Below are positions 56,101 to 64,000 of a stretch of 64,000 bases of DNA, piece by piece. The notes beneath the pieces are model-generated. The model was not told the origin of the DNA. It made no database searches and saw only the letters and a list, made by a program, of their open reading frames with translations. How positions within the stretch are numbered: position 1 is the first letter of the stretch; every line of letters starts with the position of its first letter. The stretch comes from a virus (taxonomy: Duplodnaviria > Caudoviricetes): positions 128,001 through 192,000 of IMG/VR virus record IMGVR_UViG_3300012952_003952. One strand, 5' to 3'. Both the position numbers and the translations under genes were made by a program.

Positions 56101-59100
56101 ATGAAAACACCCAGCAAGTTTTTTGGTTTACACGCGCATTCTGGCTTTTCTATTTTCGATGGGCTAGGTTATCCGCAAGAACATATTGATTTTTGTAGAG
56201 AGAATGGACTAGACGGATGGTCCATGACTGACCATGGTCACATGAACGGCTTTGGTCACGCTTATTTGCACACGGAAAAGCTAAATAAAGCAGGCGGTAA
56301 TTTTAAGTTAATCCCCGGCTGCGAGATGTATGTTCATCCAGATTTAGACGTGTGGAAGCTAGATTACGAAATCAATAAAACAGCTAAAAAAGGAGACAAA
56401 GAAGCTTTAGCTATTTTAAAAAAGCAGAGAGAAGCAATTCAAACTCCTCTTCTCGCTTTTGTAGATGAGCATGACGAAACTTTAAACGTTGGCCTAGAAG
56501 GCGCTTCTTTGACCGTTGAAAACGAAGAAGAAACTAAATCAGGAAAGTTTTATGATCCGATCAAGCGTCGTCACCATCTAGTGGTTTTACCAAAAACTTC
56601 CGAGGGATTGCAAAGGTTGTTCCACTTAGTTTCTCGAGGTTACACAGAGGGATTCTATAGATTTCCAAGAGTAGACTATAAGATGCTTAAAGAAGCCGCT
56701 AAGGGTGGCCATCTAATGGTATCGACAGCTTGTATCGGTGGACCGTTAGCCTATGACGTGTTCCAACCGCTGCAAGAAACCAATTTTGAAGATCTCATTC
56801 CTTCACTTTTTGATGACGAATCTTTAAGAAATAAAATTCTTTCTAAGTTTGAATATTCTTATGACCAGCTAGCGGATGCCGTTGGAGAAGAAAATGTAAT
56901 GCTGGAATTGCAGTTTAATAAACTCCCAGCGCAGCACTTAGTAAACAAAGCTATATTAGAATTCGCTAGAACGCGATCTTTAACAGATCAACTTATTGTT
57001 ACTTGCGATTCTCATTATGCTTCTCCTGACCACTGGAAAGAGAGAGAGCTTTATAAAAAGCTCGGGTGGCTAAACTATCAAAGCTTTAATCCAGATAATT
57101 TGCCCAAATCTAAAGAAGACTTAAAGTGCGAACTGTACCCTAAGAATGCAAAACAGGTTTGGGAATCATATCTTGAAACGACAGAAGGCCACGATTTTTA
57201 TGAAGATTCAGAAATATTTGACGCTATAGAAAGAACACATGATGTTGCTCACGAGATGATTGGAGAAATTCACCCTGATCGTAAAATGAAATTACCTTCT
57301 TATGTAGTTCCTAAAGGCCAAACAGCGAATAAAGCTCTTTTAGAAGCAGCTAAAGCTGGATTAATCAAGCGAGGACTAGCAAATCAACCAGAATATGTCG
57401 ACAGGATGAAGACAGAGCTTAAAGTTATTTTTGATAAAAATTTCTCTGAGTATTTCTTAACCATGAAAGCAATTATTGATCTTGCTCGCGAGAAAATGCT
57501 AGCTGGACCAGGCCGCGGATCTGGAGCAGGGTCTCTAGTGAATTACGCCCTTTATATTACTGACATAGATCCAGTGGAATATGGGCTCTTATTTGAGCGG
57601 TTCATGTCTCCAGAGCGAACCGAAATGCCGGATATCGACACCGATATCGCAGACCGAGATGAACTCATTAAAATTCTTAGAGAGAATTTTGGTAACAAAA
57701 ATGTGATTCCGATCTCAAATTACAATACTTTCAAGATCAAAAGTCTTCTTAAAGATGTTTCTAGATTTTATGGGATTGAATTCTCAGAAGTAAATAAGAC
57801 TCTAGCTTCTCTAGAAAGAGATGTTGCTCAAGGAAGAAAAGCAGACGGCGTGGACGCAGCTTTTGATATTAGTTTTGAAGAAGCCAAGAAGTATTCTACT
57901 AAAGTTAGTGATTATCTAGAAAAATATCCTCAAATTGCAGACCCTATCAATGTGCTTTACAAGCAAAATAAAGCACTTGGCCGACACGCTGGTGGTGTCA
58001 TTGTTTCTGAAAAAATAGAAGAAAGAATGCCTTTGATTGTGGCTCGTGGCGAAATGCAAACTCCTTGGGTCGAGGGAATGAACTACAAGCACCTTGAAGA
58101 GTTTGGTTGGATTAAGTTTGATCTCCTCGGCCTAGAAACTCTTAGAATTATCGAAAGAACAATTTCTCTTGTTTTACAAAAATCAGGGGTGGAGAACCCA
58201 ACGTTCGACCAGGTGGTAGATTGGTACAATGAAAATATTGCCCCAAACGTAATTGACTTCAACGATAGCAAAGTTTACAAAAACGTATATCACTCTGGAA
58301 GGTGGGCTGGTATTTTTCAGTGCACTCAAAGAGGTGCGCAAGCTCTATTTAAAAGAGCTAAGCCAGAATCAGTAGTAGATTTAGCTACTCTTACTTCTAT
58401 TTATCGTCCTGGTCCACTTTCTGCAAAAGTAGATAAGCTTTACATTAAAGCCAAAAACAATCCGCAGAATGTTTTTTATGGTCACCCTTTAATCGAACAA
58501 GTTCTAAATTCAACTTATGGAATGATTATCTTCCAAGAGCAAGTAATGGAACTTTGCCATGTCGTAGCCGGTTTTCCAAAAGCAGAATGTAATAAGCTTA
58601 GAAAGATGATGAAGCCGGTTGGGTCTGGTAACGAAAATGTAAAGAAGGCTGCAGCTCTAAAGAATAAATTCGTAGAAGGAGCTTCGCAAAATGGAGTAGA
58701 TAAAAATATAGCTAGCGAGCTTTACGATAGAATCTTGTATTTCAGTGGCTATGGTTTCAATAAGTCTCACGCTGTTTCTTACGCAGTTAATTCTTACCAC
58801 TGCGCTTGGCTTATGACTTACTACGAGCAAGAATGGATTCAAGCTTATTTAGAAGCTTGTTCTGGTAACCCTAAAAAGCTTTCTAAAGCCCTAAGCGAAG
58901 TAAAAGCTTTAGGATACAACATTGTTCCCATCGATATCAATAAAGCTGGTAAAGCTTGGAGTTGCGTAGACGACAATTCTTTGATGCCGTCTTTTCTCTC
59001 TTGTAAAGGCGTTGGCGAAGCTGCTGTAGAAGAAATCTTAGAGCAGAGACCTTACTCTTCTATTGAAGATTTGTTTTGGGATGAAGAAGGAAAGTGGAAG

Positions 59101-59700
59101 CATGCAAAATTCAATAAAAGAGCTATTGAATCTTTAATCAAGATTAGAGCTTTTGATTCTCTTGATTGTGTGGGTCCAGACAAAACTTTCCAAAGTTATT
59201 CTCACATGCACACTGTACTCATGGAAAACTTTAATGATATCAGGAAGAGAACCAAGAAAGATCCTTATCGCGGCAAGAATAACTTTATTAAAGCTTTAGT
59301 AGAATCTCCTCGTTCTGAAGAGTGGTCTTTCGATGCGTTGATGAACTTTGAAGAAGAGTTGTTGGGAACTATTAACGTAGAAGCTCTTCTTCCGAAAAAA
59401 TTCGTGAAGAAGATGACCGAAAAGAATATCCATTCTTTAGACGATCATAACGGAAGAGAGTTTTATTGGTTCGTTTTGACTAAAGCTATACCTAAGCTTA
59501 CAAAAAACAAGAAGCCATACCTTCTTTTAAATGGAATAGCTTCAACTGGAAGGGTCCATAGAATGTTTTGCTGGGGAGTTCCTAAAGATGCTGACCTTCC
59601 GCCGTTTACTTTTTGTATAGCCGAAGTAGACAAAAACGACTTTGGGATGTCTACTAAGTGGAACAGAATTAAAAAATTTAGCTTTAATGATTTAGCTTAA
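56101..59700 (+). CDS. dnaE: DNA polymerase III alpha subunit (family C)
   Basis: PHP motifs HAHS..S..DG, TDHG, GCEMY, CDSHY; GPGRGSGAGSL, FERF, MPDIDTD, GRHAGG, KFDLLGL, YRPGP and FNKSHA. Confidence 0.95.
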   Translation: MKTPSKFFGLHAHSGFSIFDGLGYPQEHIDFCRENGLDGWSMTDHGHMNGFGHAYLHTEKLNKAGGNFKLIPGCEMYVHPDLDVWKLDYEINKTAKKGDKEALAILKKQREAIQTPLLAFVDEHDETLNVGLEGASLTVENEEETKSGKFYDPIKRRHHLVVLPKTSEGLQRLFHLVSRGYTEGFYRFPRVDYKMLKEAAKGGHLMVSTACIGGPLAYDVFQPLQETNFEDLIPSLFDDESLRNKILSKFEYSYDQLADAVGEENVMLELQFNKLPAQHLVNKAILEFARTRSLTDQLIVTCDSHYASPDHWKERELYKKLGWLNYQSFNPDNLPKSKEDLKCELYPKNAKQVWESYLETTEGHDFYEDSEIFDAIERTHDVAHEMIGEIHPDRKMKLPSYVVPKGQTANKALLEAAKAGLIKRGLANQPEYVDRMKTELKVIFDKNFSEYFLTMKAIIDLAREKMLAGPGRGSGAGSLVNYALYITDIDPVEYGLLFERFMSPERTEMPDIDTDIADRDELIKILRENFGNKNVIPISNYNTFKIKSLLKDVSRFYGIEFSEVNKTLASLERDVAQGRKADGVDAAFDISFEEAKKYSTKVSDYLEKYPQIADPINVLYKQNKALGRHAGGVIVSEKIEERMPLIVARGEMQTPWVEGMNYKHLEEFGWIKFDLLGLETLRIIERTISLVLQKSGVENPTFDQVVDWYNENIAPNVIDFNDSKVYKNVYHSGRWAGIFQCTQRGAQALFKRAKPESVVDLATLTSIYRPGPLSAKVDKLYIKAKNNPQNVFYGHPLIEQVLNSTYGMIIFQEQVMELCHVVAGFPKAECNKLRKMMKPVGSGNENVKKAAALKNKFVEGASQNGVDKNIASELYDRILYFSGYGFNKSHAVSYAVNSYHCAWLMTYYEQEWIQAYLEACSGNPKKLSKALSEVKALGYNIVPIDINKAGKAWSCVDDNSLMPSFLSCKGVGEAAVEEILEQRPYSSIEDLFWDEEGKWKHAKFNKRAIESLIKIRAFDSLDCVGPDKTFQSYSHMHTVLMENFNDIRKRTKKDPYRGKNNFIKALVESPRSEEWSFDALMNFEEELLGTINVEALLPKKFVKKMTEKNIHSLDDHNGREFYWFVLTKAIPKLTKNKKPYLLLNGIASTGRVHRMFCWGVPKDADLPPFTFCIAEVDKNDFGMSTKWNRIKKFSFNDLA

Positions 59701-59735: not shown

Positions 59736-60584
59736 ATGAATTCGAAATACAAAAATTTAAATCAAGCCTTTGTAGAAGAGTTAGTCGATTGCCACAAGAA
59801 CGGCGTAGAAGTTGAATCTCGTGGCTTCGTACAAAAAGAAAAACTTTTCTCTTCTTTTATAATTCAAGATCCCACCGATTTGCGAATTGATGTCCCAGCT
59901 AGAAAGTTCAATGAAGACTATGCAATTTTAGAATGGCTTTGGTACCTAAACTCTGACTCTAGAATAAAGACTATCGGTAAATTTGCAGATATTTGGAACA
60001 AGATTGCAGATTCGCAAGGGGTCGTTGAGTCTAACTATGGCTCTTATTTAAAGCCGTGCTGGTATGACTTAGTAGATGAGCTTATATCTGATAGAGATAC
60101 CCGTAGAGCAACTTGCGTAATTAATCAGCCATACCATAGGTTCAAAAACCCAAAAGACTATCCTTGTACGCACTATATTCACTTTTTTATCAGAGAAGAA
60201 GCTCTTCACATGGGCGTATATATGCGGTCTAATGATGCAGTTTTTGGTTTTTGTAACGACGTTTTCACCTTTGCGTTGTTTCAACAGCTTATGCTAAATG
60301 AACTAAACGCTCGCGGTGGTAAACTTTCATTAGGAACATACTACCACTCGGCTGGAAGCTTTCACGTATACGATAGACATTATTCTATGATGGAAAAGAT
60401 AGCTGAAAATTATTTTGTGAAAGCTAGAAGAAATGGGTATCCAACCGACTTAAAGAAAATAGTGCTAGATCCCAATTTAACCTGGCCGAAAATGGAAAAC
60501 TACACGTCTTTTTTCAATGAAGACTTAGACAAAGAAGAAGTTTTAAATACAATTAAAAAGACTAAGGAAATTATATTCAAATGA
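59736..60584 (+). CDS. thymidylate-synthase-fold enzyme, dCMP hydroxymethylase-like (T4 gp42 type)
   Basis: DTRRA, DYPCT catalytic Cys, MRSNDAVFGFCNDV with Asp at the base-specificity position, YYHSAGSFHVY. Confidence 0.8.
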   Translation: MNSKYKNLNQAFVEELVDCHKNGVEVESRGFVQKEKLFSSFIIQDPTDLRIDVPARKFNEDYAILEWLWYLNSDSRIKTIGKFADIWNKIADSQGVVESNYGSYLKPCWYDLVDELISDRDTRRATCVINQPYHRFKNPKDYPCTHYIHFFIREEALHMGVYMRSNDAVFGFCNDVFTFALFQQLMLNELNARGGKLSLGTYYHSAGSFHVYDRHYSMMEKIAENYFVKARRNGYPTDLKKIVLDPNLTWPKMENYTSFFNEDLDKEEVLNTIKKTKEIIFK

Positions 60585-60862
60585 ATATTCTAAAAAAAGC
60601 AAATGAGATAATCAATGAAAGATCTGAAGAAAAAGAGCGCCAATACGGCCCAATGGGTGAAGGCCTTGAAAGAGCTGCGATGATTGCTTCTGGAATAACG
60701 GGTAAAGATTTAACAGCAGACGATATTTTTGCATGCCTCATCGGCCTTAAATTTTCTAGACATTCGTATAACTACAAAGAAGATAATTTTCTAGATGCTG
60801 CTGCTTATTTGGGAGCGTGGAACAATTACCAACAGGAGAAATTAAAAAGTGAAGATAAGTAA
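60581..60862 (+). CDS. DUF6378-like small all-alpha protein (possible nucleotide pyrophosphatase)
   Basis: RQYG ... LIGLKFSR ... DNFLDAAAY pattern; ATGA overlap. Confidence 0.55.
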   Translation: MNILKKANEIINERSEEKERQYGPMGEGLERAAMIASGITGKDLTADDIFACLIGLKFSRHSYNYKEDNFLDAAAYLGAWNNYQQEKLKSEDK

Positions 60863-61283
60863 AGTAAGGGCAGTTAAAACACCGCAAAGGGGGACTCCAG
60901 AGTCAGCTGGAATTGATTTTTTCGTGCCAGAGGGAATGATAGCTAAATTATCGCCTGGAGACTCTTGCTTGATGCCAAGCGGAATCAAAGCCAATGTTCC
61001 ATCTGGCCATGCATTAATAGCGTTTAATAAGAGTGGAGTAGCAGTTAAGAAATCTCTTCACGTTGGGGCATGCGTCGTAGACGAAGATTATCAGGGCGAA
61101 ATTCACCTTAATTTAATCAATGTTGGCTCGAGCGTTGCAGAGATAAAATCTGGAGAAAAAATAGTCCAATTTATTTTACTTCCTGTTTTTTATGACACAA
61201 TTGAAGAAGTAGAATTGGAAAACCTTTACGAAGACGAAACTGTTCGAGGTGAAGGTGGTTTTGGTAGCACGGGAGTAGAATAG
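60849..61283 (+). CDS. dut: trimeric dUTPase
   Basis: AGIDF, KSGVA, VVDEDYQGEI, IVQFIL and RGEGGFGSTG. Confidence 0.92.
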   Translation: MKISKVRAVKTPQRGTPESAGIDFFVPEGMIAKLSPGDSCLMPSGIKANVPSGHALIAFNKSGVAVKKSLHVGACVVDEDYQGEIHLNLINVGSSVAEIKSGEKIVQFILLPVFYDTIEEVELENLYEDETVRGEGGFGSTGVE

Positions 61284-62353
61284 TGGATTATTTTGTAGAT
61301 TATGAAATTCCTAAAAACTTTAAGATAGGGATCGACGGACTAGAGAGAAACATTCCGGCTAGAAAACACAGCCACAATGCTGCCTGGGTTCATCTCTACA
61401 AAAATATGCTACAATCTGCTGGCTGGAGTGATGTACACGTCTTAGGCAATCATGACACTTACGAAGGTTATGATGCTATGATATTTTATCCAGGAATTGC
61501 TTACGCTGGAACGATTAACTTCTTTTTTGGAGTTGACGACAATGTAGTTAGAAGGTTCTCCAGAATTCAAGATTTTGAAGGTCCGACTTTTATTTTAAAT
61601 CATGAAATGCCGCTCATTGGAGCGACGATCAGCAAAAGACTGCACAATAAATCGACAAGCTCGAAAATTGGAAATCTTAAACTGAGCTTATTAGATGATA
61701 TTTGCAAATCTACTCGCAGAATAGATTATGTTGAAAGATCAACAAAGCTTTGCTTTGGAGACAGTCATTGTTTTTCTGCTTATCTTCCAGGGTATTCTGT
61801 TTGCCGAAATGACGGGCTCACTCTTTTTTCTACGCTTCGCGATGGAGTAAAAGAGACCATTGAAGAAAAATATGGAGCTTCTGTTGAAAATTTGACTCAT
61901 CTTACTTTTTATATGGGCAATATTGATATAAGGCACCACTTGATGCGCCAAGAAAATCCATATGAAAAAATCCACGCTATGACTATCGAGCTTTCACACC
62001 AGCTTAAAAAACTTGATATACCAAACATTGAACTAGTTCACGCACTGCCTATCGAAAATATTTCTAGAAAACTTCCTAAAACTGGATATTATAAGAAGAC
62101 TCCATATTTCGGAACTTGGGAAGAAAGAACAAAATTAGTCAATACATTCAATGCCGCTGTAGATAGAATTTGTATAGAAAACAAATGGAATTCTTTCCAC
62201 TGGCCAGCTAAATTTTTAAATGATTCTGGTGAATTAGACTTTGAATATATGGAGCGCCCTAAAAGCGTACACTTAAGCCCGCTTTCTTATAGGTGGGACC
62301 TTTTTGAAAATCAATTAAATTTATTGCATAGTAATCAAAACAACGGAGAATAA
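61283..62353 (+). CDS. two-domain unknown: glucosyltransferase-N-like plus SGNH-like
   Basis: C-terminal FGDSH, GNIDIRHH and SVHL (SGNH-type blocks); N-terminal KIGI..YDAMI..INFFFG recalls T4 beta-glucosyltransferase. Confidence 0.5.
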   Translation: MDYFVDYEIPKNFKIGIDGLERNIPARKHSHNAAWVHLYKNMLQSAGWSDVHVLGNHDTYEGYDAMIFYPGIAYAGTINFFFGVDDNVVRRFSRIQDFEGPTFILNHEMPLIGATISKRLHNKSTSSKIGNLKLSLLDDICKSTRRIDYVERSTKLCFGDSHCFSAYLPGYSVCRNDGLTLFSTLRDGVKETIEEKYGASVENLTHLTFYMGNIDIRHHLMRQENPYEKIHAMTIELSHQLKKLDIPNIELVHALPIENISRKLPKTGYYKKTPYFGTWEERTKLVNTFNAAVDRICIENKWNSFHWPAKFLNDSGELDFEYMERPKSVHLSPLSYRWDLFENQLNLLHSNQNNGE

Positions 62354-62354
62354 T

Positions 62355-63545
62355 ATGCCAAAAAACAAGTCAATTAGAGTTGCAATCGTCGGAGTCGGAA
62401 ATTGTGCTAATTCCTTTTACCAGGGCTTAACGTATTATGCGGGGTACACCGCTGGACAAGAGCGCGATGGAGTGATGAAGAGCCGAATCGGAGGATATTC
62501 GGTAGCTGATCTCGAGGTTGTAGCAGCATTCGACGTTGATAAACGAAAAGTTGGAAAGTGTTTTAGAGAAGCTATGCTAGCCAAACCAAACTGTACTCCA
62601 AGCTATGAGGCAAATGTTCCTGACGGTCCCGTAGTTCAAATGGGCCCAATCATGGACGGTGTTCCAAATTTGATGGCTAATTATTCTGATGAAGAAGCGT
62701 TTAGAACTGCTGATTTAGAACCAGTAGATGTGGCTCAAGTGTTATTAGACCGCAAAGTGGATATTCTTATCAACTATCTTCCTGTTGGTTCTCAGAAGGC
62801 CACCGAGTGGTATGCAGAACAGTGCCTTAAGACTGGAGTTTCTCTTCTTAACTGTATTCCAGTTTTTATTGCTTCTAATCCAGTTTGGGAGCAAAAGTTT
62901 ATTGATGCTGGAATTCCACTCGTTGGCGATGACATGAAATCTCAATTTGGGGCCTCTATTATGTCTCAAATGCTTCAAGAACTAGCTTTTGCTCGAGGTC
63001 TAAATGTTAAAGCTCACATTCAGCGAAATGTCGGTGGCAATACTGATTTCTTGAACATGGTAGATCAATCTCGGCTGAAATACAAGAAAGTTTCAAAGGA
63101 GAATGTAATTCGATCTCAACACGTAATTCGTGGTGTAGACCCCGAAGAATCTTTCCTCCATGCTGGGCCGTCTGAATATATTCGCTACTATGGAGATAAC
63201 AAGGTCGCAAACTTCCGAATTGAAATGGAGGGATTCCTTGGTGCCCCAGTTATTTTAGACGCGCAGCTTTCTGTAATTGACTCTCCTAACTCTGGAGGCG
63301 TTGTAATCGACGCCGCTCGGTATCTAAAAGTCGCCAGAGAGATGGGCATTGTAGGGGCTCTCAGAGGTCCGTCTGCTTTTACTCAGAAGACTCCGCCTCA
63401 ACAGCTTATGTTTAGTGAAACTCTTTATGAATGCGACGCTCTTTCTGATAGGAGGCTCACTCGATTTACTAAGCGCCAAACAGAAAAATACAGCGCTGAA
63501 GAGCTTTACCTATCGTGTCCAGCAGGAAACAAGGAAGTAGATTAA
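62355..63545 (+). CDS. ino1: myo-inositol-1-phosphate synthase
   Basis: VAIVGVGNCA, AAFDVDKRKVG, NYLPVGS, NCIPVFIAS, GDDMKSQFGAS, NVGGNTDFLNM, GPSEYI and DSPNSGGVVIDA. Confidence 0.95.
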   Translation: MPKNKSIRVAIVGVGNCANSFYQGLTYYAGYTAGQERDGVMKSRIGGYSVADLEVVAAFDVDKRKVGKCFREAMLAKPNCTPSYEANVPDGPVVQMGPIMDGVPNLMANYSDEEAFRTADLEPVDVAQVLLDRKVDILINYLPVGSQKATEWYAEQCLKTGVSLLNCIPVFIASNPVWEQKFIDAGIPLVGDDMKSQFGASIMSQMLQELAFARGLNVKAHIQRNVGGNTDFLNMVDQSRLKYKKVSKENVIRSQHVIRGVDPEESFLHAGPSEYIRYYGDNKVANFRIEMEGFLGAPVILDAQLSVIDSPNSGGVVIDAARYLKVAREMGIVGALRGPSAFTQKTPPQQLMFSETLYECDALSDRRLTRFTKRQTEKYSAEELYLSCPAGNKEVD

Positions 63546-64000
63546 TGGCTAAATTGCATGAGCAAAAAGGAAAACTTTTTAATCCAGACTCTGAAGATTT
63601 TGAAGAGTGTGTAATAAAGTTTAACGGAAGGAATGGGTTTTGGTACAGACCAGGCACTTTTGATTTAAATTCTATAAGAGAGTGCAGAGACAATTATAGC
63701 GATATTGACACTTGCGGGAAAACAGTTTTAGATTTAGGAGCCAACATTGGAGGATTTTCAAGAATGGCTCTAGAAAAAGGAGCTAAAAAAGTAATAGCTT
63801 TAGAGCCATGCCCTCATAATTTTCAAATTTTAGAGATCAATGCCCCAAATGCAGAATGTCTAAATGCTGCAGTTTGCGAAAGCAAGGTAAAAGAAGTAGT
63901 TTTTCATTATGCTGGATCTAAAAGAAACTCAGTGTCGTCTTCTACTCTTAAAAGAAGAAATGCTTCTGGAGTATCTATTGCAGTACCAGGATTATCATTT
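63545..64000 (+). CDS. FkbM-like SAM-dependent methyltransferase (3' end outside window; absent from ORF track)
   Basis: TAATG overlap with ino1; open to the window end: MAKLHEQK...KTVLDLGANIGGFSRMALEKGAKKVIALEPCPHNFQIL...LNAAV. Confidence 0.8.
   Translation, partial: MAKLHEQKGKLFNPDSEDFEECVIKFNGRNGFWYRPGTFDLNSIRECRDNYSDIDTCGKTVLDLGANIGGFSRMALEKGAKKVIALEPCPHNFQILEINAPNAECLNAAVCESKVKEVVFHYAGSKRNSVSSSTLKRRNASGVSIAVPGLSF

Follow-up and report, generated by a model that had tools for sequence, protein, structure and literature searches.

A thymidylate synthase (TS)-fold gene of an uncultured marine giant phage probably encodes a folate-dependent deoxycytidylate 5-hydroxymethyltransferase, that is, a 5-hydroxymethyl-deoxycytidine monophosphate (5hm-dCMP) synthase of the T4 gp42 type (EC 2.1.2.8). 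We put the probability of this assignment, which builds on direct observations of fold, active-site residues, clade and synteny, at about 80%. The gene lies in a 64,000-nucleotide stretch of DNA (the window), bases 128001-192000 of a 241,978-bp IMG/VR record with an estimated completeness of 57%; negative statements on gene content below cover this 242-kb record, about 57% of the genome. The 282-amino-acid (aa) product, hereafter the query, matches Pfam PF00303 (E 1.2e-17; 64.4 bits, cut-off 24.3), and its PHROGs matches carry the label 'thymidylate synthase'. A sequence search of the PDB placed MilA, the cytidine monophosphate (CMP) 5-hydroxymethylase of Streptomyces rimofaciens (6e-23), and T4 gp42, the phage deoxycytidylate hydroxymethylase (dCH; 2e-20), at the top, with the best true thymidylate synthase at 1e-11 and most at about 1e-5.

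The cytosine-specificity aspartate

An earlier note, made from the letters of this DNA, had placed an Asp where E. coli ThyA has Asn177. MAFFT alignments bear this out. The open reading frame (ORF) is as described there, and the peptide YMRSNDAVFGFCNDV, which begins at residue 162 of the query, pairs gap-free with YQRSCDVFLGLPFNI of ThyA and NMRSNDVVFGFRNDY of T4 gp42, so that the residue in question is Asp175. This site holds Asp in 261/262 homologues, with a gap in the remaining one, and is invariant in an alignment of 64 sequences. Given this conservation, the PF00303 match and the PDB matches to MilA and T4 dCH, the placement of Asp175 is not a matter of chance. Of the motifs that the note gave for T4 gp42, RSNDVVFGFRND and MCT were correct; DTRR is the query's own, and T4 has DSRR.

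Exchange of Asn177 for Asp shifts the preference of TS-fold enzymes from deoxyuridine monophosphate (dUMP) to deoxycytidine monophosphate (dCMP) (PMC13326640, PMC8670742, PMC5175136). This rule, on which the note had relied, held in every control that we fetched: site 177 is Asn in four dUMP hydroxymethylases and two thymidylate synthases and Asp in T4 gp42, RB69 gp48, XP12 and PaMx74. In metaviromes, sites 147 and 177 are those most associated with cytosine-modified contigs (PMC8670742).

Diagnostic residues point to a hydroxymethylated product

Control enzymes were fetched and aligned, and residues were compared at sites 143, 147, 169 and 177 of E. coli ThyA (Table 1). The query differs from ThyA at Asp141 (site 143), Thr145 (147) and Asp175 (177), and also carries an Ile at Trp83. 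The earlier note had left the product open between hydroxymethylation, methylation and hydroxylation. Four features narrow it to a hydroxymethyl group, namely Asp141 at the Leu143 site, the S99-x-Y101 motif, the retained Asp167 and the lack of a ThyA-type C-terminus.

Table 1. Residues at four diagnostic sites (E. coli ThyA numbering) in the query and in control enzymes. 5hm, 5-hydroxymethyl; 5ho, 5-hydroxy; 5m, 5-methyl; dTMP, deoxythymidine monophosphate.
Enzyme	143	147	169	177	Product
Query	D	T	D	D	5hm-dCMP (predicted)
T4 gp42	D	T	D	D	5hm-dCMP
E. coli ThyA, RB69 td	L	H	D	N	dTMP
SPO1 gp29, M6, ViI, phiW-14	D	N	D	N	5hm-dUMP
RB69 gp48	E	T	N	D	5ho-dCMP
XP12, PaMx74	N	P	D	D	5m-dCMP

The residue at the Leu143 site separates methyl from hydroxymethyl products and is Asp or Glu in hydroxymethylases (PMC13326640, PMC6400193). 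In the full hydroxymethylation signature, this Asp or Glu precedes the catalytic Cys by three residues and is joined by a Ser-x-Tyr motif (PMC6400193). The query has both halves, which are invariant in the 64-sequence alignment, and positions 141 and 144 are Asp and Cys in 262/262 homologues. A string of 16 active-site positions, EWYRRDCTRSNDGDHY, is identical in the query and T4 gp42, and 19 of the 24 substrate, water and cofactor residues described for T4 dCH (PMC6400193) are identical in the query, compared with 11 in ThyA. Query C144, E66, R29, R123, R124, R164, H210 and Y212 correspond to ThyA C146, E58, R21, R126, R127, R166, H207 and Y209. The query departs from T4 gp42 in four cofactor contacts (K28S, R59L, S144K and R177C). 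It also retains the Arg equivalent to ThyA Arg21, a role that nearby Lys28 fills in T4.

The residue at site 143 also bears on whether the query could be a dCMP methyltransferase, a 5-methyl-dCMP synthase like those of XP12 and PaMx74, which would methylate reductively as TS does and release dihydrofolate (DHF). These enzymes share the Asp at site 177 with the query, and a dCMP deaminase stands in the query's gene block, as in XP12; it was the only match to the XP12 cd protein in a phmmer search of the genome ORFs. Both enzymes, however, have Asn at site 143, and in T4 dCH the D145N mutant is inactive, its 5hm-dCMP formation abolished (PMC6400193). Further differences lie in Pro147 and in a ThyA-like C-terminus: the C-termini of XP12 and PaMx74 align to the ThyA ending ...HPGIKAPVAI and that of the query does not. 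The XP12 and PaMx74 synthases must carry out hydride transfer. Each has a dihydrofolate reductase (DHFR) gene beside it, whereas Pfam searches found no DHFR in the 242 kb, nor a second PF00303 gene or ThyX; the absence of DHFR fits a hydroxymethylase that regenerates tetrahydrofolate (THF). The two synthases also form a well-supported clade of their own (support 99), and we consider methylation very unlikely. As an observation in its own right, XP12 and PaMx74 combine Asn143, Pro147, the ThyA-like C-terminus and a TS-deaminase-DHFR run, a feature set that may tell makers of 5-methylcytosine (5mC) from makers of 5-hydroxymethylcytosine (hmC).

A second possibility is a dUMP hydroxymethylase serving a thymidine-type hypermodification, as in SPO1, ViI, M6 and phiW-14, with a dUTPase providing dUMP and a PF18723 protein acting on 5-hydroxymethyldeoxyuridine (5-hmdU) in DNA. 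The hydroxymethylation Asp is common to the query and these enzymes, the second gene downstream of the TS-fold gene encodes a dUTPase, and a PF18723 protein is encoded in the same gene run. Sites 177 and 147 argue otherwise: they are Asn and Asn in all four of these enzymes, and Asp and Thr in the query and 254/262 homologues. The four also differ from the query by a one-residue insertion before site 177, and they form their own group in the tree (support 96) with the query outside it. Formation of 5hm-dUMP is thus a highly improbable activity for the query.

The remaining diagnostic site, 169, speaks to a flavin-dependent 5-hydroxy-dCMP synthase of the kind found in RB69 gp48 and DLP3 gp80. 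Like RB69 gp48, the query combines Asp at 177 and Thr at 147 with an acidic residue at 143, and 5-hydroxylation is documented for a diverse set of TS homologues from IMG/VR (PMC13326640). The mark of these newly found enzymes is Asp169Asn (PMC13326640), and this is absent here: the query has Asp167, and the homologues have Asp in 261 cases, a gap in one and Asn in 0/262. The query also has Gly171 and Tyr212 against Val and Phe in RB69 gp48, with which it is 19% identical. Of the alternatives, we give this one the least credence.

Unlikely too, though to be taken together, are a canonical thymidylate synthase, a MilA-type CMP hydroxymethylase and an undescribed C5 chemistry. No other PF00303 gene was found in the 242 kb, where genes for a dUTPase, a thymidine kinase and a dCMP deaminase are also present, as might suit a thymidylate synthase; against this, four ThyA sites are changed and the C-terminal lid is missing. 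MilA is the query's best PDB match and shares Asp at sites 177 and 143. MilA owes its preference for CMP to Ala176 and Lys133, however, and an A176S/K133R double mutant abolishes CMP use (PMC5175136). The query has Ser165 and Arg123 at these positions, as do the deoxy-type enzymes (T4 Ser169 and Arg123'), in place of the Ala176 and Lys133' that favour ribose in MilA. MilA moreover serves bacterial antibiotic biosynthesis and not phage DNA synthesis. For a new chemistry there is no positive evidence. The earlier proposal of a dCMP-acting C5 transferase that is not a thymidylate synthase agrees with every test that we ran.

Fold, C-terminus and phylogeny

An AlphaFold2 (AF2) model of the query, built with 64 homologues, has a mean pLDDT of 97.5. 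At E<=1e-3, Foldseek matched it to about 400 PDB chains of the TS family. First in order came MilA (TMq 0.78-0.80 for ligand-bound chains, over about 302 columns), followed by an Elizabethkingia thymidylate synthase and then, among many thymidylate synthases, T4 dCH (0.65). Where ThyA has its folate-closing C-terminus, the query has a helical extension that resembles the extra C-terminal helical region of MilA (PDB 5B6D, 5B6E, 5JNH; PMC5175136). T4 gp42 (PDB 1B5D, 1B5E, 6A9A) shares with the query the TS fold, the specificity Asp, both halves of the signature and the lack of a ThyA lid, and the extension of about 60 residues is the query's alone in this pair. The dUMP hydroxymethylases SPO1 gp29, ViI, M6 and phiW-14 likewise combine Asp at site 143 with long helical C-terminal extensions and no hydride-transfer lid.

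The earlier note had called for a phylogeny with ThyA, gp42 and the dUMP hydroxymethylases. In a maximum-likelihood tree of 69 rows rooted on ThyA, the query grouped with T4 gp42, apart from both of the others. XP12 and PaMx74 split off first, and every enzyme with Asp at site 143 falls into one clade (support 99). Within it, the query and T4 gp42 are members of a large Asp177 group (SH-aLRT 81). The tree is consistent with a predicted hydroxymethylase but is not decisive.

Proposed mechanism and points that weigh against it

Homology to T4 dCH suggests that the enzyme acts as a homodimer. Cys144 would attack C6 of dCMP, with Asp175 orienting and protonating the cytosine ring, and Glu66 would open 5,10-methylene-THF. 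After departure of THF, a water activated by Asp141 and positioned by Ser99 and Tyr101 would add to the exocyclic methylene, giving 5hm-dCMP and THF with neither hydride transfer nor DHF. Once phosphorylated, this nucleotide would serve as a substrate for the DnaE-type polymerase encoded next door, yielding hmC DNA, which a variable downstream cassette may further decorate in the query phage and some of its relatives. Substrate, product and product fate are what we infer here.

Several points weigh against this assignment. Identity of the query is about 27% to T4 gp42 and about 24% to MilA, so the call is based on signature residues and not on orthology. In the tree, backbone support is weak, T4 and RB69 gp48 sit on long branches, and the well-supported 21-row subclade to which the query belongs (support 95) includes no enzyme that has been characterised. 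To our knowledge, the PF18723 family has so far been tied to 5-hmdU and not to hmC, and a member of it stands in the cassette. The hmC pathway requires deoxynucleoside monophosphate (dNMP) kinase and dCTPase activities. The record encodes a dUTPase, a thymidine kinase and a dCMP deaminase in addition to the predicted hydroxymethylase, but neither a dNMP kinase (DNMK PF21448, Thymidylate_kin PF02223) nor a MazG/PRA-PH dCTPase (PF01503) was found in its 242 kb, and phmmer searches of all genome ORFs with T4 gp1, RB69 gp56, the RB69 TMK-like protein, T4 beta-gt and XP12 DHFR gave no match. Part of the missing steps might come from the trimeric dUTPase or from the DUF6378 protein encoded downstream, and with an incomplete record this gap lessens confidence in the call but does not refute it. 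Finally, an unexpected chemistry, namely flavin-dependent hydroxylation, has lately come to light in TS homologues (PMC13326640).

A conserved TS-DUF6378-dUTPase triplet

The TS-fold ORF begins 36 nt past the stop codon of a gene for a full-length, 1199-aa DnaE-type DNA polymerase III (Pol III) alpha subunit with PHP, NTPase, finger and HhH domains. A Shine-Dalgarno-like AAAGAGGA lies about 12 nt 5' of its ATG, and a promoter scan gave nothing above shuffled sequence. Its stop shares an ATGA overlap with the start of a DUF6378 gene, which is followed directly by the dUTPase gene in the close clade (Table 2). A gene adjoining replication and nucleotide-metabolism genes in a large phage is a further likeness to T4 gp42, although the partners differ, DUF6378 and a trimeric dUTPase here and gp56 and gp1 in T4.

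Table 2. Features of the TS-fold gene, its surroundings and two reference loci. Plain coordinates are window positions; L-numbers denote loci.
Feature	Position	Strand	Evidence or remark
DnaE-type Pol III alpha gene	56101-59700	+	directly upstream of TS-fold gene
TS-fold enzyme gene, 282 aa, ATG start; predicted 5hm-dCMP synthase (dCMP hydroxymethylase)	59736..60584	+	intact ORF, PF00303, PDB sequence matches, AF2 model
S99-N100-Y101, Ser-x-Tyr half of hydroxymethylation signature (T4 S94-x-Y96)	60030..60038	+	alignments; rule PMC6400193
R123-R124, phosphate-binding arginines from partner subunit (ThyA R126'/R127'); MilA has Lys at the first	60102..60107	+	alignments; PMC5175136
D141-Y-P-C144, water-activating Asp three residues before catalytic Cys (T4 D145-x-x-C148; ThyA L143...C146)	60156..60167	+	alignments; rule PMC6400193, PMC13326640
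R164-S165-N166-D167; Ser165 of deoxyribose type (MilA Ala176), Asp167 kept (Asn in 5-hydroxy-dCMP synthases)	60225..60236	+	rules PMC5175136, PMC13326640
Asp175 codon, cytosine-specificity residue (ThyA Asn177, T4 Asp179, MilA Asp186)	60258..60260	+	alignments
C-terminal helical extension (~residues 213-282)	60372..60581	+	model secondary structure, alignment, PMC5175136
DUF6378 gene, 93 aa	60581..60862	+	profile match, synteny
Trimeric-type dUTPase gene, 144 aa, third of the triplet	60849..61283	+	PF00692 1.1e-21
Candidate hypermodification cassette: 356-aa protein, inositol-1-phosphate-synthase (Ino1) homologue, FkbM methyltransferase, 138-aa ORF, PF18723 protein, PF00145-like C5-methylase relative	61283-64000 and L005:3283-9312		
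PF18723 protein	L005:6680-8134 (genome 192680-194134)		
dCMP-deaminase homologue, 134 aa	L005:12210-12614 (genome 198210-198614)		9.6 kb downstream of TS-fold gene
Fe/Mn superoxide dismutase C-terminal domain ORF, 228 aa	L005:15020-15706 (genome 201020-201706)		PF02777, 9.6e-14
XP12 TS-deaminase-DHFR run	L007:44377-46195		
PaMx74 TS-deaminase-DHFR run	L008:39165-41392		

Relatives of the query are numerous in marine metagenomes, where hundreds were found in Tara, JGI and ENA data. Identity to the query is 51-80% for the best 120 listed, and a deep search gave 2794 representatives at E<=1e-10. Their contigs reach 305 kb, and some have been mis-binned into bacterial metagenome-assembled genomes. 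Cultured relatives are distant. The DnaE and TS-fold proteins have cultured relatives of <=38% identity, the best for DnaE being about 30% identical, and a 14-kb region had no megablast match among cultured phages. With relatives this distant, the lineage is without a cultured representative in the phage collection searched, and there is no cultured proxy with known DNA chemistry.

Synteny was assessed by tblastn of the window's neighbouring proteins against 80 related IMG/VR loci (L020-L099). In the close clade the triplet is nearly constant; across the 80 loci, DUF6378 occurs in 40, making it the most constant neighbour of the TS-fold gene, and the dUTPase in 35. The DUF6378 protein is strongly conserved, with 13 invariant residues (R14, E17, K18, R20, Y22, G23, K57, S59, R60, D68, L71, D72 and Y76). 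AF2 predicts a small helical structure for it (pLDDT 84), to which Foldseek found no PDB match at E<=0.001. Tried as a MazG-like dCTPase, it gave generic helical-hairpin matches in VIA-align (Z<=6.3), with a putative NTP pyrophosphohydrolase at Z 4.9, within noise. Its PHROGs label, 'phosphofructokinase', looks spurious. Cultured homologues were found in Mycobacterium and Tsukamurella phages only, and in the literature DUF6378 appears in annotation mentions only. A constant, translationally coupled but uncharacterised partner is thus linked to an enzyme of predicted function.

An optional cassette downstream of the conserved module

Between the dUTPase gene and the DHH and dCMP-deaminase genes lies a candidate hypermodification cassette. 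It is found in 6-9/80 related loci and is missing from some close relatives (L027 and L022); in L027, the dUTPase gene is followed immediately by the DHH and deaminase genes. Since it is present in so few loci and absent from close relatives, the base-making module is the conserved part and the decoration cassette an optional insert. The 356-aa protein has no PDB sequence match. The PF18723 protein carries a 5-hmdU DNA kinase helical domain, and its pairing with an Asp177-type TS homologue at the head of the gene run is unusual, as the TS homologues of SPO1, M6, ViI and phiW-14 are all of the Asn type.

A dCMP-deaminase homologue is within about 1 kb of an Asp-type TS in 34/80 loci (L046-L090) and directly follows it in most of the more distant ones. 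Linkage of these two genes was reported as a hallmark of cytosine-modified contigs, at 70% of them and 6% of unmodified ones (bioRxiv 10.1101/2024.12.05.627091), and its occurrence here speaks for the predicted activity of the query. Tentatively, and with more doubt than confidence, we suggest that 5hm-dCMP from the query enzyme could be the entry to an undescribed DNA hypermodification in these abundant uncultured marine jumbo phages, in which the cassette decorates hmC or the deaminase diverts part of the hydroxymethyl-deoxycytidine nucleotide pool to hydroxymethyl-deoxyuridine (hm-dU). If the hm-dU branch were real, one Asp-type enzyme would feed both hmC and 5-hydroxymethyluracil (hmU), and the presence of a protein of the '5-hmdU kinase' family beside a cytosine-type enzyme would have an explanation.

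Relation to previous metagenomic work

Both this class of enzyme and the residue rule are published already, and their use on IMG/VR data is routine. Asp177-type TS homologues of metagenomic phage contigs were treated in the MetaGPA study (PMC8670742) and in the NEB deaminase screen (bioRxiv 10.1101/2024.12.05.627091), which share with our analysis the inference rule, the IMG/VR or metavirome source and the dCMP-deaminase linkage. They tested mostly makers of 5m-dCMP and the pairing with a 5hmC carbamoyltransferase, and the portions of the two papers that we read make no mention of a marine jumbo-phage clade with DUF6378 and dUTPase partners. What is added is this context, a large uncultured marine phage clade with contigs of up to about 300 kb, whose DNA is predicted to carry hmC in place of, or in addition to, cytosine. 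Such a base would affect how the DNA of the clade behaves in restriction, sequencing-library preparation and methylation-aware sequencing. The TS-fold gene is also the premise for claims on the neighbouring cassette, whose readings would change were the product to lead to hmU, 5mC or 5-hydroxycytosine.

Farther downstream in the same record lies a 228-aa ORF with a match to the C-terminal Fe/Mn superoxide dismutase domain, an unusual gene for a phage.

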